The notes: a model not told the origin generated them from the sequence alone. DNA of 64,000 nt from a bacterium (GCA_021814695.1 JAKAHY010000002.1:8920-72919); one strand, 5' to 3'. Shown: positions 1,290 to 30,978, numbered from the stretch's first letter. Translations and numbers: made by a program.

Positions 1290-1796
1290 CTATTTTCCTT
1301 TCATTATTTGCATTATGAGGCCTCTTCCTCCCGGTCTTATTGTTGTTGTAACCTGATAATCTGCACTGATCATTTTTATAAAATCGTTGAATCTTTTTCT
1401 GGCCCAATCCTGATTGTATTTCTCCCTGCCCCTTAAGGCCATCATTATTTCAACTTTATTTCCTTTCTCAAGAAATTCTTCCGCCTGGAGTGCTCTGATT
1501 TTAAGATCGTTATCGGCAGCTCTTGGAGTTATTCTTACCTGTTTTAACTCTCCGGTTGGTTTGTGCGCACGCTTCTTCTCCTCTTTTCTTTGTTGATATC
1601 GGAATTTATCGTAGCTGATTATTTTTACTACCGGCGGTTTGATATTAGGTGCGATTTCAACCACATCCAGCCCTTTTTCTTCGGCTAGTGCAAGTGCCTC
1701 AGAGAGTTTCATAACGCCCAAATTAGCTCCTGCTTCGTCAACCACGCGCACTTCTGATGCCGTAATTCTTTGGTTGATTCTGACGTAGTTATCGAT
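1290..1796 (-). CDS. infC: Translation initiation factor IF-3, with an inferred non-canonical start codon
   Basis: The ORF track starts at GTG 1751 (MRVVDEAG...). The frame stays open upstream and encodes IDNYVRINQRITASEVRVVD, which is the conserved IF-3 N-terminal RIN..I....VR segment. There is no ATG, GTG or TTG in that stretch. ATC at 1794-1796 is my best guess for the start. Confidence 0.8.
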   Translation of the reverse strand: MDNYVRINQRITASEVRVVDEAGANLGVMKLSEALALAEEKGLDVVEIAPNIKPPVVKIISYDKFRYQQRKEEKKRAHKPTGELKQVRITPRAADNDLKIRALQAEEFLEKGNKVEIMMALRGREKYNQDWARKRFNDFIKMISADYQVTTTIRPGGRGLIMQIMKGK

Positions 1797-1873
1797 GGTG
1801 AGTGGCGTTACTGTTTTTAACGTCCATTAGATTAACACACAAATAAGCCGTTTGCAATACTTTTGCGGCTGAT

Positions 1874-1903
1874 AAAAAAAGCCCACCGGTGTTCTGGTGG
1901 GGC
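1874..1903 (-). terminator. Rho-independent terminator of the GC-rich minigene
   Basis: On the minus strand: GCCCACC-agaacacc-GGTGGGC followed by TTTTTTT. Confidence 0.75.
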
Positions 1904-1930
1904 GCCTCGTTGGAGGCGGTTGGGAAGCGC

Positions 1931-2152
1931 TTAGCCGCGCTTCGCTTTGGAGGATGCCGAGACCTTGTGAGTCCCGGCGACGGCCACGCCGCGGTTGGCG
2001 GTGGCCAGGTCGGCCTGAGTCCTCCGCTTGGCCGCCCGGTTCGCGTGCTTGACGCTGTGACGGTCCTTGGGCGCGGTCTTGCCGCAGCGCCCGTTGGGGT
2101 GGCGGTTGCCGCCACCCGAAACCCGACAGTGACACAGTTCGCACACGGCCAT
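1931..2152 (-). CDS. Small basic Cys-containing protein (73 aa) of unknown function; GC-rich and probably foreign
   Basis: GGGAGG lies 6 nt upstream of the ATG. By hand count, 63 of 73 codons end in G/C, in an AT-rich genome. It has 4 Cys (CxxCxC...C) and is K/R/A/G-rich. It has its own promoter and terminator. The N-terminus MAVCELC only faintly recalls the L28 family. Confidence 0.6.
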   Translation of the reverse strand: MAVCELCHCRVSGGGNRHPNGRCGKTAPKDRHSVKHANRAAKRRTQADLATANRGVAVAGTHKVSASSKAKRG

Positions 2153-2190
2153 ATTACACCTCCCTTGTCGTTTGATTTACCGCTTTTTAT

Positions 2191-2219
2191 AACATAGCAT
2201 AACTAACTACATTTGTCAA
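2191..2219 (-). promoter_or_regulatory. Sigma-70-type promoter of the GC-rich minigene
   Basis: On the minus strand: TTGACA (2214-2219), a 17-nt spacer, then TATGTT (2191-2196). Confidence 0.55.
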
Positions 2220-2229
2220 TATTTATGGG

Positions 2230-2256
2230 AAAACAAAATCACCCGCAAGGGGTGAT
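2230..2256 (-). terminator. Terminator downstream of the GIY-YIG unit
   Basis: On the minus strand: ATCACCCC-ttgc-GGGTGAT followed by TTTGTTTT. Confidence 0.7.
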
Positions 2257-2265
2257 CTTATTTTT

Positions 2266-2290
2266 GTGGAGATGGGAGAGTTGGCTCCGA
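2266..2290 (-). repeat. Duplicate of the tmRNA 3' end (T-loop end, T-stem 3' strand, acceptor 3' strand)
   Basis: The minus strand reads TCGGAGCCAACTCTCCCATCTCCAC. The genuine tmRNA end at 2672-2697 reads GAGTTCAACTCTCGCCATCTCCAC. About 19 nt are shared, with one 1-nt indel. Confidence 0.8.
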
Positions 2291-2530: not shown

Positions 2531-2671
2531 ATTATCTATAATTATATGGCCCTCCTTCGCATAAAGCTACGGAGGACTCACTACTCGCACCATAAAACTC
2601 CCCAGATGGGGAGTTTTATTGCAATGCTTCTTGTGCAAGGAGTGCTTGCACTACGAAGCCTTGGCGAAGTA
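2531..2671 (-). other. Hairpin-rich leader ('type B' motif) between the tmRNA and the GIY-YIG ORF
   Basis: It contains CTTCGCCAAGGCTTCGTAGTGCAAGC, a terminator-like AAAACTCCCC-atct-GGGGAGTTTT, and CCTCCGTAGCTTTATGCGAAGGAGG. The first and last motifs recur after tRNA-Gly(UCC), at 47838-47943 and 48066-48174. Confidence 0.6.
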
Positions 2672-2988
2672 GTGGAGATGGCGAGAGTTGAACTCGCGTC
2701 CAGAAAGAGGGATTGAAAGCGTCTACGGGCGTATCTTCTTTTGGAAGCTGATTTGCTTTCTGATTGTCCCTACGGATACGAAAGCGCTTTCCGTGGGTAA
2801 GCCTCAAATATAACACCGGCGATTTCCCCATGAGACATCGGGAGCCGATGGCTTACGCACGAACTAAAAAGTTCTTAAGCGTATGCAAGTGCTACATTTC
2901 TGTTAGCAGATTTGTTTTGGCGGATTTACAAGTCGCCGCTTGACCCGCAACTTTCAAAGAACTCTATCTGTCAAAGCCCAGCATCCCC
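2672..2988 (-). ncRNA. ssrA: tmRNA (SsrA), about 317 nt
   Basis: The 5' GGGGATGCTGGGCTTTGAC pairs with the 3' ...CATCTCCAC, giving G3:U70. The T arm is GCGAG-TTCAACT-CTCGC. An internal tag frame GCT AAC AGA AAT GTA GCA CTT GCA TAC GCT TAA encodes ANRNVALAYA* (2875-2907), which resembles E. coli ANDENYALAA. It is adjacent to smpB. Confidence 0.88.
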
Positions 2989-3498: not shown

Positions 3499-5643
3499 AT
3501 GAAAAAATCTTCATTAATCGTGGTCATTTTGCTTGTTGTGGCAAGCGTAGGAATGACCGTCATCTTTTCAAATCAAGTGTCGATAAAGGGATTTCTATCG
3601 AGCGTTTATTCTACTGCATCAGGCAGAAATCATATACAGCTGGCAAACGCTCAGTCCTTGGGACAGGGGGTTGTAGTTTTTAAAGCGCAATTTGGCCATT
3701 TGGAAGCAACCGGCCAAGTTGTCTCCGGTATTTCCGGACTAGCGGGGCTGCCGGTGACAAAATTTGTTCCCGACAGAGACCTTTCGGATTCTGAAAAAAA
3801 GCAGGTTGAAGTAAACATCACCGAAGAGAACACCGTTTTCGGATTTATTGTGGCAAAAAACGTTTCATTAGGGCAGGGAATCGGTTTTAACATTCCCCAA
3901 GGAGAAGTTTATAACTACGGTTTTTATGTGAATTCCGACATCCTTCCTCAAGGATGGACATATAACTCTTCTTGCGTAGAGACGGGAGGAAATATTAAAT
4001 TATCTGCCGGCCAACAAAGCGAATGCACGATAGGTTTTTATCTGAAACCAACGCCTGCGCCGGTTACTCCTCCCGCTTCGACGTCCACTCCCGTCTCACC
4101 TCAGGAAGGAGCGTCAGGTACCGTTATTAGTGAAGATTCCGGTTCTGGATCGCTGCAGTTTGTAAAAAATATTTTGGACTTAAGTACGGGGTGGAAAAAC
4201 CCCGGATCGGATAAAATATTGGACGCAAAAATCGTTGAATTATACGGAAAGAAATTTCTTATTGTTTCGACTCAAAACAAACATTTGCTTGTTTACGATG
4301 CTTCAAACCAGTTTTCGCCGGTTCTTTTGAAAGATAATGATTTATCAGGCAGTAACGTGTCGGCGTTTTATCTTGTGGTTTTAGATAATTTCAATTACGT
4401 ATTTGCCTGGGGAGGAAACTCTGCCAACTACGGATCTTTTAAGATTGAACAAGACGGATCTGCGTCTCTGGTAAAAAGTTACAAACCTGACCAATATAGC
4501 GTTACTCAACCGAATTTGGTTTTCGGGTTGTTTAGAGGGTTAGACGGTAAAGCGTATGGATTTGGAGGGAACGGGGGCGATGGATGGCTAACTATTTATG
4601 ACGTGTCCGATCCGGCAAACATCAGCGAAATTGGATCATATCAAGATGGCTTAGTCGGGAATCACTGCGGCAATTATGGTCTGATTGGATTGGACAGGCC
4701 GCTTCAATGGAATACTTCTCAACAAGGGAACAAGCTTTATCTGGTAACTCATGCGGACCAGTGCGTCCAGCGGCTGCATACTTCCGGAGACGCCAGAATT
4801 TATATTTTTGACGTTTCTGATCCAAAAAATCCGCAGCTTTCCCATCAATATGAGCTTTCCGGTTCTTTTAACCACATACCTTCGGACGCGACTAAGGCCG
4901 AACAGACATTTCTTTTTGGCGGGATCGCCGACATTGCCGTTGATTCAAATTCGGGTAAGGTTTTTGATTTTTACAGGACGGTTTTTGATTGGCAGGGGCC
5001 ATCCTGGTCTCAGATAGCAAACATAGTGCATGGTACTTTGTTTAGATACAGAACCGGACTGGTCACTCTTTCACTGCAATCGGACGGTTCTCTAAAAGAA
5101 TTGTCGCGGGCTTTATTGTGCGAACAAAAGGGCCCAATGTATGATGGTGGCGGTCCGCAATATTATCGATGCGGCGACGTGGATGGAAACGACAAAAATA
5201 CCCAAGGCGGATATGATTATTCGGCAAGAAATTCTCAACAAAATTACAACGGAGTTTTTCTCCTCAGTGGGCCGGGAAATAGCGGTCAGGTGGGCTTACT
5301 AAGGAGTGATAATAGTTTTGTTGTCATTCCCGATACCGCCGGAGAGATGACTAAATTTAAGACGGCTATTAAAGATTCATCTTATTATTCGAATATCTAT
5401 AATCCCGCTATCAATGGTGTTGTGACCCAGGTTGACAGTAAAACATTTGCCATCTATCAATTTGATAGTTATTCGTTAAGCGTCGTTAAGGTTTTGTTGT
5501 CGCAATCTCTTGTGGGGGGATCGAAAAATCCCTCTCCTCCAGTGACCGGAGTTGCGCCTTCGGCAAACGTACCACTAACATCACCCGCATTTTCATTTAA
5601 TGCGCTCCTGAACATCTTCAGAAGGATACTTAACAACTACTAA
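3499..5643 (+). CDS. Secreted/surface LVIVD-repeat (beta-propeller-type) protein, paralogue 1
   Basis: It has an N-terminal hydrophobic signal/anchor. LVIVD-like repeats include LTIYDVSDPANISEIG, IYIFDVSDPKNPQLS and LLVYDASNQFSPVL. An S/P/T linker is followed by the C-terminal tail PAFSFNALLNIFRRILNNY. Confidence 0.8.
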   Translation: MKKSSLIVVILLVVASVGMTVIFSNQVSIKGFLSSVYSTASGRNHIQLANAQSLGQGVVVFKAQFGHLEATGQVVSGISGLAGLPVTKFVPDRDLSDSEKKQVEVNITEENTVFGFIVAKNVSLGQGIGFNIPQGEVYNYGFYVNSDILPQGWTYNSSCVETGGNIKLSAGQQSECTIGFYLKPTPAPVTPPASTSTPVSPQEGASGTVISEDSGSGSLQFVKNILDLSTGWKNPGSDKILDAKIVELYGKKFLIVSTQNKHLLVYDASNQFSPVLLKDNDLSGSNVSAFYLVVLDNFNYVFAWGGNSANYGSFKIEQDGSASLVKSYKPDQYSVTQPNLVFGLFRGLDGKAYGFGGNGGDGWLTIYDVSDPANISEIGSYQDGLVGNHCGNYGLIGLDRPLQWNTSQQGNKLYLVTHADQCVQRLHTSGDARIYIFDVSDPKNPQLSHQYELSGSFNHIPSDATKAEQTFLFGGIADIAVDSNSGKVFDFYRTVFDWQGPSWSQIANIVHGTLFRYRTGLVTLSLQSDGSLKELSRALLCEQKGPMYDGGGPQYYRCGDVDGNDKNTQGGYDYSARNSQQNYNGVFLLSGPGNSGQVGLLRSDNSFVVIPDTAGEMTKFKTAIKDSSYYSNIYNPAINGVVTQVDSKTFAIYQFDSYSLSVVKVLLSQSLVGGSKNPSPPVTGVAPSANVPLTSPAFSFNALLNIFRRILNNY

Positions 5644-8333: not shown

Positions 8334-8358
8334 ATCCCCCTAGCTGGGGGATTTTTTT
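8334..8358 (+). terminator. Rho-independent terminator
   Basis: ATCCCCC-tagct-GGGGGAT followed by TTTTTT. Confidence 0.8.
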
Positions 8359-8366
8359 GCAAGCAA

Positions 8367-8377
8367 TGTGATATAAT
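8367..8377 (+). promoter_or_regulatory. Extended -10 promoter TGTGATATAAT (copy 3)
   Basis: GCAAGCAATGTGATATAATAAAACAAAT lies 19 nt before ATG 8397. Confidence 0.65.
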
Positions 8378-8396
8378 AAAACAAATAAAAATAACC

Positions 8397-10580
8397 ATGA
8401 AAAAATATTCATTAATTGTGATTATCTTACTTGTTGTTGCAAGTATAGGGATTACCGCTATCTTTTCAAGTCAAGTGTCGATAACCGGATTTCTTTTGAG
8501 CGTTTACTCAACTGTTTCGGGGAGCAATCAAATACAGAGAGTAAATGCACAAACGACAGGCCAAGGAACCATATTATTCCAAGGCCAATTCGGTCATCTT
8601 GAATCGACCGGAAAGGTCACTACCGGAATTTCGGGCTTATCCGGACTTCCGGTGATGAAATTTGTTAAAGACCGTGACCTATCTAGCGATGAAAAAAATC
8701 AGATTAGAGTGGATGTTATTGAACATAACACTCCTTTTGAATTTGTAGTTGCAAAAAATATTTCGCTTGGAGAGGGTGTTAATTTTAATATTCCCGTAGG
8801 TTCGACATATAGATATAGTTTTTATGTTCACCCCGACTCGATTCCCTCCGGATGGGTTTATTATTCCGGTTGTTTAGAGACCGATGGGAATGTTTCGGTA
8901 CTGGCCGGTCAGCAAAGTACTTGCAGCATAGGATTTTATTTAAAGCCCGAAACAATCTCACCCCCTCCGGTCACATCAACATCTACGATCACGTCTACTC
9001 CTTCGGTAGGTGTTTCGGGAACTGTTGTCGGTGAAGATGCCAGCGCAGGATCGTTGCAGTTTGTAAAAAACGTTTTGGATTTAAGCTCACAAAGAAAGGG
9101 CATTATTTATGGAGTTTTGGACGCAAGAACCGTTAATTTGTATGGAAAAAATCTTCTGATAGTTGCTAGAGGTGGAGCTTACTCTGCTACCACTCCAACC
9201 TGGCATATGCTTGTTTATGATATAACCGATCCGCTTGCCCCGGTTCTTTTGAAGGATAATGATATGTCCGGAAGTGGCATAATCTATAGTTCTCCAATGA
9301 CCGGTTTGGCAGTGCTTGATGGCTTTAATTATGTATTTGTCCGTGGAAATGTCGGTTACGGTTCGTTTAAAATTAATCAGGACGGAACTGCGTCTCTTGT
9401 GAAAAGCTATAAATATTCTGAAGTTCAGCAGATACAGACAGATTTAATCAGGGGATTGTTCAACGGTCTGGATGGAAATATATACGGCTACGGAGGGTTT
9501 GTGCAGGATGGAGGACTCGTGCTTTATAACGTTTCCGATCCCGCTAATATTATTCAAGTTGGAACGTATACTAATGGTCTTGAACCAGCGATTGCCATCT
9601 ATGGACAAATTGGATTGAATCGCCAGAGCACTTGGGGCGTTGTTAAAGAAGGAGGCAAACTTTATCTTATTGCTCATGCGGACCAGTTGGTTCTGCGCCT
9701 TCATACGGATTATGATGGAATGATTTATGTTTTTGATGTGTCCAATCCGGCAAGTCCGCAGCTTTCACATATCTATAAAATGTCCAGCTCCTTTAATCAC
9801 CTTCCTTCCGATATGACTTCGTATGAGAAGATGTTTCTTTACGGAGGAGAAGCTAATATATCGGTTGATCCAATATCAAATAGAGTATTTGATTTTTACA
9901 GAACGGTTTTTGATTGGCAGGGACCCAATCAGCTTAAGATAAAAGACATTCCTAAAGGAGCCTTGTTTCGTTATAGAAATGGAATAGCCGTTCTTTCAAT
10001 AGGAATCGATGGTTCTTTGAAATCAAGTTCCAGTAACATATTATTGTGCGAAAGAATAGCCATTCAAGATAATGGGACGTCAGGCGAAGATAAATGTGAT
10101 ACAAAGAGTCCCGAAACGGTTGGGGGATATTATAGTTCCAGTCTTTATGGAAACAGGAATCCTCAAGAAAATTATAACGGAGTATTTCTTCTTGGCGACG
10201 TGAATAATGTCGGACATGTAGGGCTGTTAAAAAGCGATGGTAGTTTTGTTATCATACCCGATCCAACCGGAGAAATGCTTAAATTCAAATCTGTCTTGGC
10301 TGACCCGTCGTATTATTCCGATCCTGGTTTTCGTTCGTCTCCAATCAATGGCATTGTCACTCAAGTTGATAGCAAAACCTTTGCAATATTTCAGATTGAT
10401 AATTATTCCATAAGTGTTACAAAGCTAAATCTATCACAATCCATAACGAGCGTAACACAAAAATCTTCGCCACCTACCACAAATGCCCCTAGTTCATTAA
10501 ATACATCATCTCCTACTCAGACTCCATTTTCCTTCAGCTCGCTCCTGAGAATATTTCAGAGGGTGTTCAATAGTCAGTAA
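8397..10580 (+). CDS. Secreted/surface LVIVD-repeat protein, paralogue 3
   Basis: It is collinear with paralogue 1 along its whole length. Repeats include LVLYNVSDPANIIQVG and MIYVFDVSNPASPQLS. The tail is TPFSFSSLLRIFQRVFNSQ. Confidence 0.8.
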   Translation: MKKYSLIVIILLVVASIGITAIFSSQVSITGFLLSVYSTVSGSNQIQRVNAQTTGQGTILFQGQFGHLESTGKVTTGISGLSGLPVMKFVKDRDLSSDEKNQIRVDVIEHNTPFEFVVAKNISLGEGVNFNIPVGSTYRYSFYVHPDSIPSGWVYYSGCLETDGNVSVLAGQQSTCSIGFYLKPETISPPPVTSTSTITSTPSVGVSGTVVGEDASAGSLQFVKNVLDLSSQRKGIIYGVLDARTVNLYGKNLLIVARGGAYSATTPTWHMLVYDITDPLAPVLLKDNDMSGSGIIYSSPMTGLAVLDGFNYVFVRGNVGYGSFKINQDGTASLVKSYKYSEVQQIQTDLIRGLFNGLDGNIYGYGGFVQDGGLVLYNVSDPANIIQVGTYTNGLEPAIAIYGQIGLNRQSTWGVVKEGGKLYLIAHADQLVLRLHTDYDGMIYVFDVSNPASPQLSHIYKMSSSFNHLPSDMTSYEKMFLYGGEANISVDPISNRVFDFYRTVFDWQGPNQLKIKDIPKGALFRYRNGIAVLSIGIDGSLKSSSSNILLCERIAIQDNGTSGEDKCDTKSPETVGGYYSSSLYGNRNPQENYNGVFLLGDVNNVGHVGLLKSDGSFVIIPDPTGEMLKFKSVLADPSYYSDPGFRSSPINGIVTQVDSKTFAIFQIDNYSISVTKLNLSQSITSVTQKSSPPTTNAPSSLNTSSPTQTPFSFSSLLRIFQRVFNSQ

Positions 10581-27587: not shown

Positions 27588-28133
27588 TTATTTAGTAATT
27601 GAATTTAAAATATCATTCACGTCGCTTGTAGTAGATGACGTCGAATCGGATGGATTTGCCGAATTTATCTTTGTTTGCTCCCCTTTAATCACGGACTCGC
27701 TTAAATGAGCGGGGGTGTTGGCAGCTACCTCTTTAAGGGCTGACGCGCTTTCGCTCGCGTCTTGTTCAAAGCGTTGTATATGTGAAAGTTGAACGTCTAT
27801 TGATGCGTTTATCATATCGGCCTCCGCTACAACTCCGCGCTGGTTTAATCCGGGCAAAAATAGGGGAGAAAGCTGGGAGGTGGCCAAATAAATTATTATA
27901 AATAAGCCGACGGTTGCAGTTGCAACGGCTAATCCGCGCCACACATTTTGGAACAAAGAAGTGAATGAAATCGTTCTCAAATCTGCGGTAGCAGCGGCAA
28001 ATGACGGGCTTTCCTGGATAGTGGGTGTAAATGGAGTAGCCAGAATTATATTTTTGGAACGCTCCGAATACGCCTTATCGGGCGTTATGGTTCTGAATTG
28101 TTCCAATATTTTTATAATTTGATTATGCTTCAT
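27588..28133 (-). CDS. Single-pass membrane protein, candidate anti-sigma factor
   Basis: It overlaps the sigma gene by 11 nt and has a central TM segment (GLAVATATVGLFIIIYLA). The anti-sigma role is inferred from position only. Confidence 0.45.
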   Translation of the reverse strand: MKHNQIIKILEQFRTITPDKAYSERSKNIILATPFTPTIQESPSFAAATADLRTISFTSLFQNVWRGLAVATATVGLFIIIYLATSQLSPLFLPGLNQRGVVAEADMINASIDVQLSHIQRFEQDASESASALKEVAANTPAHLSESVIKGEQTKINSANPSDSTSSTTSDVNDILNSITK

Positions 28134-28683
28134 ATTTTTCCAGTTCCTTTTTCAGTTGCCGGAGCGCCCTGAATTGCAGCACGCGTACGGCGCCATGGTT
28201 TTTTCCGGTGATTTTAGCTATTTCTTTGGGAGATAGTCCTTCTACGAACCTCATAAGTATAATTTCCTGATAATCCGATGGTAGTCGCTTGATTGTTTTG
28301 TAAACCGTTTCCACCTCTAATTTATTGGAGAGCATTTCCTCGCTGCTTTTTGTGGTCAGTGACAAAACTTCATCGGGGATATCATCAATGTTGGTTATTT
28401 GTTTTTTTGTCCTATAAAAATCAATGACCTTATTTCTGGCAATTTTATATAACCAACTTGCCATAGGAAGGCCCTGATCCTGAAACATCTCAATGTTCTG
28501 CCAAGCACTTAAAAATACCTGATGGGTGAGGTCCTCAGCTTCCTCACGCTGGCTTACTTTTAGGAATATAAACCGAAATAGTTTCGGTTGATATTTGTCG
28601 TAAAGCAAGCCAAAAGCCGAGGCCTCACCCCGGATAGCGCGCTCTAGTAAGTCTCTTTCGTTGTCTATGCGCTCATCTTTCAT
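28123..28683 (-). CDS. RNA polymerase sigma-70 family factor (ECF-like, regions 2 and 4)
   Basis: Region 2 is FGLLYDKYQPKLFRFI...EDLTHQVFLSAW. Region 4 is LPSDYQEIILMRFVEGLSPKEIAKITGKNHGAVRVLQFRAL. Confidence 0.88.
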   Translation of the reverse strand: MKDERIDNERDLLERAIRGEASAFGLLYDKYQPKLFRFIFLKVSQREEAEDLTHQVFLSAWQNIEMFQDQGLPMASWLYKIARNKVIDFYRTKKQITNIDDIPDEVLSLTTKSSEEMLSNKLEVETVYKTIKRLPSDYQEIILMRFVEGLSPKEIAKITGKNHGAVRVLQFRALRQLKKELEKYEA

Positions 28684-28846: not shown

Positions 28847-28875
28847 TTGACTAATATGTTATATTATGTTAATAT
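28847..28875 (+). promoter_or_regulatory. Sigma-70-type promoter of the second GC-rich minigene
   Basis: TTGACT (28847-28852), a 17-nt spacer, then TAATAT (28870-28875). Confidence 0.55.
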
Positions 28876-28897
28876 TATGGCAGAAAGGAGATTGCCC

Positions 28898-29116
28898 ATG
28901 AACAGCACGAATAAGCGGAGGGGTTGGATCGGCGTGATCGGGGCGGCGGGGTTGGCGGTTCTGTTATACGCCAACACTCTCAATGTTGTGGCTCATATGG
29001 CCAGCGGCCGCGGCTCGTTGGGTTTGGGCATCCCGCTCGCCCTCATATTCGGTGGCGGGACCTACTTCTTCGGGGACATCGCGCTCAAGAAGGCGAGGTA
29101 TCTCGCCAGCCACTAG
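28898..29116 (+). CDS. Small two-TM membrane protein (72 aa) of unknown function; GC-rich and probably foreign
   Basis: AAAGGAG lies 7 nt before ATG 28898. By hand count, 59 of 72 codons end in G/C. It has two hydrophobic segments (WIGVIGAAGLAVLLY, LGLGIPLALIFGGGTYFF). I prefer this ATG to the upstream TTG at 28847. Confidence 0.6.
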   Translation: MNSTNKRRGWIGVIGAAGLAVLLYANTLNVVAHMASGRGSLGLGIPLALIFGGGTYFFGDIALKKARYLASH

Positions 29117-29139
29117 CAGTTCTTTGTTTCGTTCGACGT

Positions 29140-29170
29140 GAACGGTTCTACGGAGCCGTTCCTTTTTTTA
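29140..29170 (+). terminator. Rho-independent terminator
   Basis: GAACGG-ttctacggag-CCGTTC followed by CTTTTTTT. Confidence 0.7.
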
Positions 29171-30157: not shown

Positions 30158-30227
30158 TTTTTATAAAAAAGTTTATTAACATGATGGACTTTTTTTAAAA
30201 ATCACGATAACATAAACTCACAAATTT

Positions 30228-30299
30228 GCGGGTATCGTATAGCGGCTATTATACTTCCTTGCCAAGGAAGAGATACGGGTCCGACTCCCGTTACCCGCT
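30228..30299 (+). tRNA. tRNA-Gly (anticodon GCC)
   Basis: The acceptor stem is GCGGGTA/TACCCGC. The anticodon arm is CTTCC-TTGCCAA-GGAAG. The T arm is ACGGG-TCCGACT-CCCGT. CCA is not encoded. The T loop has C at position 55. Confidence 0.9.
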
Positions 30300-30337
30300 C
30301 AAAAACAAAAATTACCCAAACGGGTAATTTTTGTTTT

Positions 30338-30466
30338 GGGTGTTGACGGGGTAGGATGCGGGGTGGTCGAGGGGCTGCAAGCCCCTCGTGTTGGAAATTA
30401 TTCAAAACCGAGGGTTTTGAAGGAGCGAATATAATGAGCGACGTCCGATTTCCCGTTACCCGCTCA
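30338..30466 (+). repeat. tRNA-3'-end-capped structured repeat ('type A' unit), Gly(GCC) copy
   Basis: It reads GGGGTGGT, P1 CGAGGGGCT-gca-AGCCCCTCG, TGTTGGAAA, P3 TTCAAAACC-gag-GGTTTTGAA, then ...GAGCGACGTCCGATTTCCCGTTACCCGCTCA. The last ~20 nt repeat the tRNA-Gly 3' end. Confidence 0.8.
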
Positions 30467-30502
30467 AAAACAAAAAGCACCACAAGGGTGTTTTTTGTTT
30501 TC

Positions 30503-30653
30503 TGTCCGCCCGGAAGGGAGTCTCACGTCGCTCCGACATTGCGTCGGAGCTCCCAAGACACCCTCGGTTTCTTGACGCTCCTCCGGAGCTTTTTCCTACA
30601 CGGGAGATTAAGCATCTCCCGACCCCTCTCTATTCAATTCCTTGTTGACGAAC
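30503..30653 (-). repeat. Type A unit, Lys copy 2
   Basis: On the minus strand it reads GGAATTGAATAGAGAGGGGT, P1 CGGGAGAT-gctta-ATCTCCCG, TGTAGGAAAAAG, CTCC-gga-GGAG, CAAGAAACC-gag-GGTGTCTTG, GCTCCGAC-gcaat-GTCGGAGC, then GACGTGAGACTCCCTTCCGGGCGGACA. Confidence 0.8.
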
Positions 30654-30689
30654 AAAACAAAAAATATTCACAAAGGATATTTCTTATTT

Positions 30690-30827
30690 TGTCCGCCCGG
30701 AAGGGAATCTCACGTCGCTCCGACCTTGCGTCGGAGCTCCTTAAAACCATTCGGTTTTAATATTTCCTCCACGGAAAACCTTCGGTTTCCCGACCCCATC
30801 CGATTTGATTCCTTTACTGACGAATAT
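30690..30827 (-). repeat. Type A unit, Lys copy 1
   Basis: On the minus strand it reads GGAATCAAATCGGATGGGGT, P1 CGGGAAACC-gaa-GGTTTTCCG, TGGAGGAAA, AAAACC-gaat-GGTTTT, GCTCCGAC-gcaag-GTCGGAGC, then GACGTGAGATTCCCTTCCGGGCGGACA. Confidence 0.8.
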
Positions 30828-30865
30828 AAAACAAAAAGCACCACAAGGGTGTTTTTTGTTTTCTG

Positions 30866-30938
30866 TCCGCCCGGAAGGGATCGAACCTTCGACCGTCTCC
30901 TTAAGAGGGAGCTGCTCTACCAGCTGAGCTACGGGCGG
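30866..30938 (-). tRNA. tRNA-Lys (anticodon CTT)
   Basis: The acceptor stem is CCGCCCG/CGGGCGG (C1:G72). The D arm is GCTC-AGCTGGTA-GAGC. The anticodon loop is CTCTTAA. The T arm is GAAGG-TTCGATC-CCTTC. CCA is not encoded. Confidence 0.88.
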
Positions 30939-30978
30939 TACGAAACCATTCTGCCATCAAAAAAATAATTTTGCAATC

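Follow-up and report, generated by a model that had tools for sequence, protein, structure and literature searches.

Why does a small GC-rich gene sit directly upstream of infC in an otherwise AT-rich bacterial genome, and where did it come from? The question is raised by positions 1,874 to 2,219 of a stretch of 64,000 nucleotides (nt) of bacterial DNA (GCA_021814695.1 JAKAHY010000002.1:8920-72919), which is referred to below, at its full length, as the window. A first-pass annotation, made from the sequence alone, had described here a GC-rich minigene for a basic, cysteine-containing protein of 73 residues, placed between infC and the transfer-messenger RNA (tmRNA) locus, with an AT-rich promoter of its own. 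Our analysis indicates that the patch of high GC is a genuine gene, which encodes a small basic protein and has sequence signals for independent transcription and for translation. The gene belongs to a family that appears to be previously undescribed and that occurs mostly in what look like ultra-small bacteria of the Candidate Phyla Radiation (CPR, or Patescibacteria). As to origin, we hold with moderate confidence that the best reading is an old import from a high-GC source that is still equilibrating with its host.

The composition of the minigene is foreign to the genome that carries it. GC content is 0.70-0.72 in 100-nt windows across 1901-2150 and 0.41 over the whole 64 kb, as expected from the island that had been described. 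A 150-nt GC scan finds only two patches that stand out, the minigene (maximum 0.75) and 28873-29163 (maximum 0.64), so that the earlier count of two islands is correct. The minus-strand open reading frame (ORF) at 1931..2152 translates into precisely the 73-residue peptide given in the first-pass annotation; it has a GC content of 0.69, with 0.64, 0.60 and 0.85 at codon positions 1, 2 and 3. Recounting also reproduced the figure of 63 G/C-ending codons among the 73 sense codons, a third-position GC fraction (GC3) of 0.86, or 0.85 with the stop codon. The reference for this value is a set of 215 chunks of 74 codons taken from the long ORFs of the window (mean 0.406, standard deviation 0.069, maximum 0.61). 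The minigene lies at z = 6.4 relative to these size-matched chunks and beyond their whole range, which marks it as a compositional island. The GC-rich tract is made up of the ORF and a 49-nt 3′ untranslated region (3′UTR; 0.71 GC), and the promoter and leader have a GC content of 0.33. The promoter, Shine-Dalgarno sequence and terminator of the first-pass annotation were all located (Table 1). General translational selection for GC3 was considered as a cause and rejected, since rplT, rpmI, infC and smpB of the window have ordinary GC3 values of 0.38-0.48.

Homologue searches with the 73-residue peptide place the product in a defined family. Two profile searches (of 1.84 billion representative proteins and of 5.8 billion) recovered about 40 relatives of 57-98 residues. 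They share an N-terminal motif, C-x2-C-G-x-P-V-x-GGG(N/D)RH-A-x3-(C/H), a basic middle segment that is predicted to be helical, and a C-terminal motif, RG(V/A)xVAG(T/V)(G/H), which reads RGVAVAG in the consensus and is often followed by K.SASSK. The minigene product is basic and does have the four cysteines ascribed to it (positions 4, 7, 9 and 23); of these only C4, C7 and C23, together with H18, are conserved in relatives. Of the putative ligands, the first Cys and the His are invariant across 39 sequences, and the second Cys is kept in at least 90% of them. At the fourth position, 32 sequences have Cys and 7 have His, an exchange that is typical of a metal site. We infer that zinc is bound by the N-terminal CCHC knuckle. 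Together with the basic helix, the knuckle would most likely serve to bind nucleic acid, be it DNA, RNA or the ribosome. AlphaFold2 models consist of the knuckle and one helix, with a confidence score (pLDDT) of 57 from 4 sequences and 64 from 39, the knuckle being the best-predicted part (about 77). A pLDDT of 64 allows no conclusions on the fold, and a Foldseek search of the model against the PDB found nothing.

The family appears to be absent from Pfam, NCBIfam and PHROGs. None of 39 members matches a PHROG better than E = 0.02, PADLOC has no match for the family, and PDB sequence profile searches give no relevant match. In NCBIfam, two of the 39 members match NF041909 weakly (best 2e-4) and two match PRK14890 (2e-3). 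Literature searches returned no description of the family, nor of GC-rich minigenes in CPR bacteria. The labelled sources of the family are one metagenome-assembled genome (MAG) of Parcubacteria and two MAGs labelled Saccharibacteria, and the low-GC contigs with readable DNA look CPR-like, a term that we take from the labels of relatives. A pattern for the close lineage found nothing in GTDB genomes, and a broader pattern found the two Saccharibacteria-labelled MAGs and one spurious match in Acidobacteriota. A scan of JGI metagenomes gave three loci. In one further protein, P0007 (77 residues), the first 41 residues are a good family N-terminus and the C-terminus matches DUF1178 (5.9e-14); this could be either a natural fusion or an assembly chimera.

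The age of the gene at its present locus can be judged from its closest relatives. Four homologues with 64-82% identity occupy the same locus and form, with the window, a five-member lineage (window, L001, L002, L003 and L017; L numbers denote loci). In all five, the gene lies directly upstream of a conserved promoter-like box and the infC start. In the window, L002 and L003, smpB and tmRNA also lie upstream; L001 and L017 differ on that side. The other four members have kept the TTGACA box and the -10 region, and all five keep the ATG and a G-rich Shine-Dalgarno sequence at the same place. The lineage genes have a GC content of about 0.68-0.69 and GC3 of 0.77-0.87 on contigs of 0.40-0.46 GC. 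Indels within the lineage are whole codons. Nonsynonymous divergence is everywhere below synonymous divergence (dN/dS < 1; Table 1), and a fast-evolving linker separates the conserved N- and C-terminal motifs. The C-terminal region, codons 54-69, has the lowest nonsynonymous divergence (dN, 0.12-0.29) in three of four pairwise comparisons; in the fourth, window against L003, the N-terminal region has a lower dN than the C-terminal region. The ORF is intact and its motifs are conserved in all five members, which speaks against the earlier suggestion that the gene is a remnant. Synonymous divergence (dS) of the flanking genes in the lineage is 0.8-2.7. The common ancestor of these five lineages, whose flanks have diverged to this extent, thus already had the minigene upstream of infC, and its residence has been long, not recent.

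The lineage also shows in which direction the composition is moving. Changes were polarised by parsimony between S (G or C) and W (A or T) states; these tests and the likelihood tests below cover 73 codons in five taxa, and parsimony over-counts changes from the common state. At codon position 3 there were 21 S>W and 2 W>S changes, at position 1 there were 18 and 5, and at position 2 there were 8 and 9. Positions 1 and 3 combined thus show 39 changes towards AT versus 7 towards GC. In a two-state likelihood model, a non-stationary process beats a stationary one (p = 0.023), with a root GC3 of 0.93-0.97, and the model does not reject 0.42, the value of the host, as the equilibrium (p = 0.12). 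The AT-ward flux and the non-stationary fit together indicate that the minigene is out of equilibrium and moving towards its host, as expected for an import.

Further evidence comes from the rest of the family. DNA could be read for 13 distinct family genes of the approximately 40, and the GC3 comparisons cover these. Gene GC3 is above that of flanking genes in 12 of the 13, with an uneven excess of about 0 to +0.45. In L025 the gene has 0.93, with neighbouring genes at 0.41-0.69 and a locus GC of 0.50. The other values, gene versus flanking, are 0.82 and 0.54 in L010, 0.70 and 0.45 in L021, 0.65 and 0.57 in L015, 0.61 and 0.35 in L011, 0.58 and 0.34 in L018, 0.57 and 0.43 in L013, 0.55 and 0.42 in L019, and 0.53 for both in L023. 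The margin is clear (z of at least 3.5) for the window's lineage, L010, L011 and L018, and weak (z of 2 or less) for L013, L015, L019 and L021. The excess spans family members of only 30-45% protein identity at unrelated loci. The gene is GC-enriched in most of the CPR-like low-GC contigs examined, a wider pattern that the first-pass annotation had not noticed. The family loci outside the lineage look like different stages of equilibration. There, the family gene occurs in unrelated contexts; in L018, L021 and L023 it is a stand-alone unit with a strong Shine-Dalgarno sequence and a terminator, and L018 and L021 also have a near-consensus promoter. In L018, a second GC-rich and very basic ORF of 67 residues (1804-2007, +) overlaps the family gene by ATGA, ahead of a shared terminator. 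This ORF, translationally coupled to the family gene, is missing at the syntenic locus L021, and no Pfam family matches it.

One relative is found in a high-GC context. P0023, with the near-identical P0046-48, lies on a contig (L024) that is 71.6% GC throughout. The gene has a GC3 of 1.0 and its neighbours have 0.82-0.97, so that its composition is native there. It is placed among tightly overlapping small ORFs, between a gene for a Cro/CI-type helix-turn-helix (HTH) protein and one for an excisionase-like HTH protein. Nearby is a 336-residue phage-family protein whose best match is from Myxococcus phage Mx4 (42% identity, 6e-43). This match is the only lead to a donor, for which the first-pass annotation had speculatively named an actinobacterial host. 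P0023 is nested in the family tree, not basal, and L024 has no neighbours in common with the low-GC (CPR-type) loci. The high-GC origin proposed in the first-pass annotation is supported by this relative in a phage-like contig of 72% GC and by the non-equilibrium drift towards AT; its description as a recent acquisition is not, given a flanking dS of about 1 to over 2.

On the reading that we favor, an old import still equilibrating, the source of the coding sequence and 3′UTR would have been rich in GC, and the most plausible candidate is a phage, or another mobile element, of a high-GC bacterium. Such an element is the one donor-type context that was actually seen, in P0023. The imported tract would have been placed under a resident-type, AT-rich promoter and inherited upstream of infC since before the split of the five sampled relatives, drifting slowly towards the AT-rich composition of the host. 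Codon choice may in addition be constrained by mRNA structure, a brake that would be the likely cause of the slowness. The direction and the vehicle of transfer, like the expression level of the gene, we infer. Gene exchange into and among Patescibacteria is documented, and comes mostly from other Patescibacteria (PMC12455944). This makes a mixed history plausible, in which the gene was imported once or a few times and then spread through the phylum.

Several observations weigh against an import. First, silent sites change too slowly for neutral decay. Members of the lineage differ in S/W class at 0.22-0.26 of third positions, and their flanking genes at 0.28-0.39; had an all-GC ancestor decayed neutrally at the pace of the flanks, the difference should be at least 0.37-0.43. 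Nei-Gojobori dS is likewise 0.55-0.80 for the minigene versus 0.8-2.7 for its flanks, which are near saturation and make the ratio rough. Second, the native coding sequence of every family gene folded (11 of 11) is more stable than its synonymous shuffles; the mean folding z of six independent lineages is -1.77, compared with -0.34 +/- 1.22 for 32 control chunks (Mann-Whitney p = 0.0004). The slow silent change and the excess of mRNA stability point to some constraint on silent sites, plausibly mRNA structure, on top of drift. Third, the start codon marks the exact beginning of the GC-rich tract, in the minigene as in the unrelated second island, and such a sharp start is explained equally well by import and by selection on the transcript. 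Fourth, a high-GC context was seen for only 1 of the 13 family genes with readable DNA, and that gene is nested in the tree. A tblastn search of 50,697 phage records and 72,556 plasmids found no relatives, and in IMG/VR all 120 matches to a peptide pattern and a degenerate RGVAVAG DNA pattern failed a hidden Markov model screen. A high-GC reservoir is thus not demonstrated by these collections, and many independent imports would be needed. Additionally, L025 (GC3 0.93) and L013 (0.57) both lie near obg, with Obg proteins that are only 63% identical, and the support for non-stationarity is modest (p = 0.023, from 73 sites). An overlapping or antisense gene was also considered as a cause of the slow silent-site change; 13 of 14 genes do have an open antisense frame in register, which follows from how rare TTA, CTA and TCA codons are.

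Several of these observations also speak for a serious rival, which we consider possible but tentative: the family would be native to CPR bacteria, and selection on the transcript would preserve its GC-rich coding sequence. Such selection could favor an mRNA that is strongly structured, long-lived or resistant to nucleases, or an RNA with a dual function. In that case CPR bacteria would have exported the phage-like high-GC copy, and the AT-ward drift would reflect mutation pressure that weak selection does not fully hold back. This explains better than import does the excess of GC3 in most of the family, the silent-site turnover below that of neighbouring genes, the start of the GC tract at the ATG, the scarcity of relatives in high-GC contexts, and the nested position of P0023. 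The persistence of the excess across diverged proteins and unrelated loci, the stability of the mRNAs relative to synonymous shuffles, and the coincidence of the GC-rich tract with the transcribed ORF and 3′UTR, under an AT-rich promoter, also fit, as does the same pattern in the unrelated second minigene. However, a family held at equilibrium should show equal flux in both directions, not 39 changes versus 7 at positions 1 and 3, and the stationary model is the one that fits worse. The excess of GC3, moreover, varies between lineages from about zero to +0.45. No helix internal to the ORF has covariation support (RNAalifold term +6.2), no known mechanism demands G or C at nearly every third codon position, and GC3 is ordinary (0.39-0.48) in the window's genes for ribosomal proteins, which indicates that general translational selection is weak.

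A more general form of selection on the transcript, which we regard as rather improbable, is that tiny, strongly promoted genes in AT-rich reduced genomes keep a GC-rich, structured coding sequence as a selected trait of the mRNA. If this unlikely rule did hold, it might cover both the minigene family and the membrane peptide of the second island, and the property could be stability, nuclease resistance or a function at the RNA level. Composition might then be functional rather than a mark of ancestry, with the high-GC phage copy again an export from CPR bacteria.

The second minigene, on which part of this argument draws, is an observation in its own right. It is GC3-rich (0.82) and encodes a predicted membrane peptide of 72 residues. 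It has its own AT-rich promoter and Shine-Dalgarno sequence, and it is divergent from the gene for an extracytoplasmic function (ECF) sigma factor (Table 1). Its sequence is unrelated to that of the first minigene, but its composition follows the same pattern, and here too the ATG is where the GC tract starts. Its sole homologue, in L008, has 76% identity, a GC3 of 0.73 and the same context.

Could the product instead belong to the ribosome? The gene might encode a ribosomal protein in diverged or shortened form, such as a zinc-binding paralogue like L28 or L31, or else a ribosome-associated factor, and its place beside infC-rpmI-rplT would serve co-expression. The protein is small and very basic, and within the lineage its gene is always directly upstream of infC-rpmI-rplT. 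Its N-terminus is also superficially like the start of L28, MxxxC..(T/C)G..P..G.N..H, and like the CxxCHP motif of L31. We nonetheless find this very unlikely. No Pfam match to L28 or L31 was found at E up to 10 for the query and 16 family members, PDB-wide profile searches yield no ribosomal protein, and hhalign gives probabilities of 1.3% for L28 and 0.4% for L31 (compared with B. subtilis L28 and E. coli L31 sequences). The resemblance of the first residues to L28 that the first-pass annotation had pointed out is therefore superficial. The minigene also ends in a terminator of its own, infC is preceded by a separate conserved promoter-like box, and in other lineages the gene contexts are unrelated.

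That the region is a non-coding structured RNA, or a leader that regulates the infC operon in cis, with an ORF that is merely incidental, is highly improbable and largely refuted. GC-rich patches in GC-poor genomes are often RNA genes, an L20 leader lies upstream of infC in some bacteria, and the minigene transcript folds better than dinucleotide shuffles (z = -3.4). However, Rfam has no match to 1874-2219 at the gathering score, and at E up to 10 it gives chance-level matches only (best 24.9 bits versus a gathering score of 50) and no L20 leader. RNAalifold on the five lineage transcripts returns a covariation term of +6.16, which is a penalty, and compensatory pairs are essentially confined to the terminator. 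The conserved Cys/His motifs in about 40 relatives and the dN/dS values are a strong coding signal, in line with the first-pass annotation's preference for a protein gene over a structured RNA, and distant family members do not adjoin infC. Finally, an assembly chimera of high-GC and low-GC reads, as the abrupt shifts of composition at both ends might suggest, is refuted by three independent assemblies (L005 from ENA; L006 and L007 from Logan, two different sequencing runs) that cross both GC/AT junctions at 100% identity to the window, by 13 contigs on which an identical protein is called, and by four diverged relatives with the same junctions.

Comparison with known systems helps to place the minigene. 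According to Lawrence and Ochman, laterally acquired genes reportedly 'ameliorate' slowly to the base composition of their host. Like such genes, the minigene has a strongly atypical GC3 and an AT-ward drift concentrated at codon positions 3 and 1. Its family is also patchy, with loci that differ between lineages, and has one relative in a mobile-element-like context of matching composition. Unlike them, its foreign tract comprises only the ORF and 3′UTR under a host-type promoter. It also predates a radiation with flanks near silent-site saturation and yet retains a GC3 of 0.77-0.87, so that its decay is slower than neutral. The product resembles the haloarchaeal HVO_2753 family (NF041909) and the PRK14890 putative Zn-ribbon RNA-binding proteins in length (about 60-90 residues), in a CxxCG-type knuckle and in its C/H ligands; like HVO_2753-type micro-proteins, it is basic and is encoded by stand-alone genes of unknown or regulatory function. 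The family differs from these in having one CCHC knuckle, not two CPxCG pairs, and in its own GGG(N/D)RH and RGVAVAG motifs.

Among ribosomal proteins, bL28 and zinc-binding bL31 are likewise short and basic, with an N-terminal Cys motif, and in the lineage the minigene adjoins ribosomal and translation genes. L28 has an SHxxxxTKRxxxPNL motif and a C-terminal beta domain. In contrast to bL28 (PF00830), the family lacks the TKR...PNL motif and the C-terminal domain and shows no profile similarity, and the minigene is a separate transcription unit. The setting of P0023, among small overlapping ORFs between Cro/CI-type and excisionase-like HTH genes, is like that of early-region proteins of temperate phages. 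Unlike such proteins, the family has no PHROG match and no relatives in the phage and viral-contig collections searched, and the low-GC (CPR-type) copies examined are single chromosomal genes with strong promoters of their own.

Table 1. Features of the minigene and of other parts of the window that are discussed in the text.
Feature	Coordinates	Strand	Basis or remark
Promoter, sigma-70-type: TTGACA, 17-nt spacer, TG-n-TATGTT	2191..2219	-	10/12 consensus positions, upstream TG
Shine-Dalgarno sequence GGGAGG	2159..2164	-	6 nt ahead of ATG 2152..2150; read from sequence
Coding sequence, 73-residue basic protein	1931..2152	-	composition, homologues, dN/dS 0.26-0.61; stop TAA at 1933..1931
Putative CCHC zinc knuckle, codons 4-23 (C4-x2-C7...GGGNRH18...C23)	2084..2143	-	ligand conservation
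Conserved C-terminal motif RGVAVAGTHKVSASSK, codons 54-69	1946..1993	-	R, G, V nearly invariant family-wide
Small GC hairpin GCCTC-CAAC-GAGGC in 3′UTR	1904..1917	-	read from sequence, folded
Intrinsic terminator: stem-loop 1901..1882, then T-run	1874..1901	-	sole helix with compensatory changes among five lineage members
Conserved promoter-like box TTGCAA...TAATCT ahead of infC	about 1829-1857
Upstream extension of the IF3 frame	about 1752-1805	-	frame and conservation in relatives; listed GTG start at 1751
Degenerate copy of tmRNA T-arm and acceptor 3′ strand, plus terminator hairpin	2230-2290	-	93% identity over 46 nt to true tmRNA end and terminator of L003
Insertion-like stretch, with the degenerate copy and, between copy and tmRNA, only the GIY-YIG ORF	2230-2669	-
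GIY-YIG nuclease ORF, 79 residues	2291..2530	-	Pfam 5e-14
tmRNA	2670..2988		real 3′ end at 2670
714-residue protein next to smpB	3499-5643		faint LVIVD-repeat matches
Paralogue of the 714-residue protein	8345-10022		about 65% DNA identity
ECF sigma factor gene	28123..28683
Second GC3-rich minigene, 72-residue predicted membrane peptide	28898-29116	+	GC3 0.82
Repeated peptide blocks (VFFVFCPPGRESHVAPTLRRSS, FVFERVTG) in ORF translations	about 30200-30970	both	around tRNA genes 30228-30299 and 30866-30938

The neighbours of the minigene are as previously described: genes for initiation factor 3 (IF3), L35 and L20 downstream, and the GIY-YIG ORF, tmRNA and SmpB upstream. The frame and conservation of IF3 extend upstream of its listed GTG start, and infC probably starts, as is usual for this gene, at a non-canonical AUC or AUU codon near 1800. 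At the position of the 3′UTR hairpin of the minigene, L003 carries another hairpin, GCCC-TTTT-GGGC. No repeat or integrase was found bracketing the minigene, which sits just outside a small insertion in the tmRNA 3′ end. The degenerate copy of the tmRNA end lies approximately 400 bp beyond the real 3′ end, and the stretch with the GIY-YIG ORF has the appearance of a very small insertion that entered ssrA at its 3′ end and supplied a new end in place of the old one. The spacers of L002 and L003 are shorter and have a second copy. In L001, an IS481-type transposase gene (4280-5161; rve domain) replaces the tmRNA-side context directly upstream of the minigene promoter. Elsewhere in the window, the 714-residue protein next to smpB has a paralogue, and the peptide blocks repeated around two tRNA genes suggest repeated DNA flanking the tRNAs.

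At present, the minigene is a well-documented foreign-looking gene. If the present reading holds, its analysis would define a small zinc-knuckle family, mostly on contigs that look like CPR/Patescibacteria, which would be a cheap target for biochemistry, given its strong expression signals in every lineage examined. The slower-than-neutral decay and the excess of mRNA structure suggest selection on silent sites, and the gene would offer a test case for it in organisms in which little of it is expected. If the high-GC origin is true, foreign minigenes of this kind would record the flow of DNA from a high-GC partner, or from its phages, into episymbiotic bacteria. The donor pool could then point to the hosts of these bacteria, which are unknown for most Parcubacteria.

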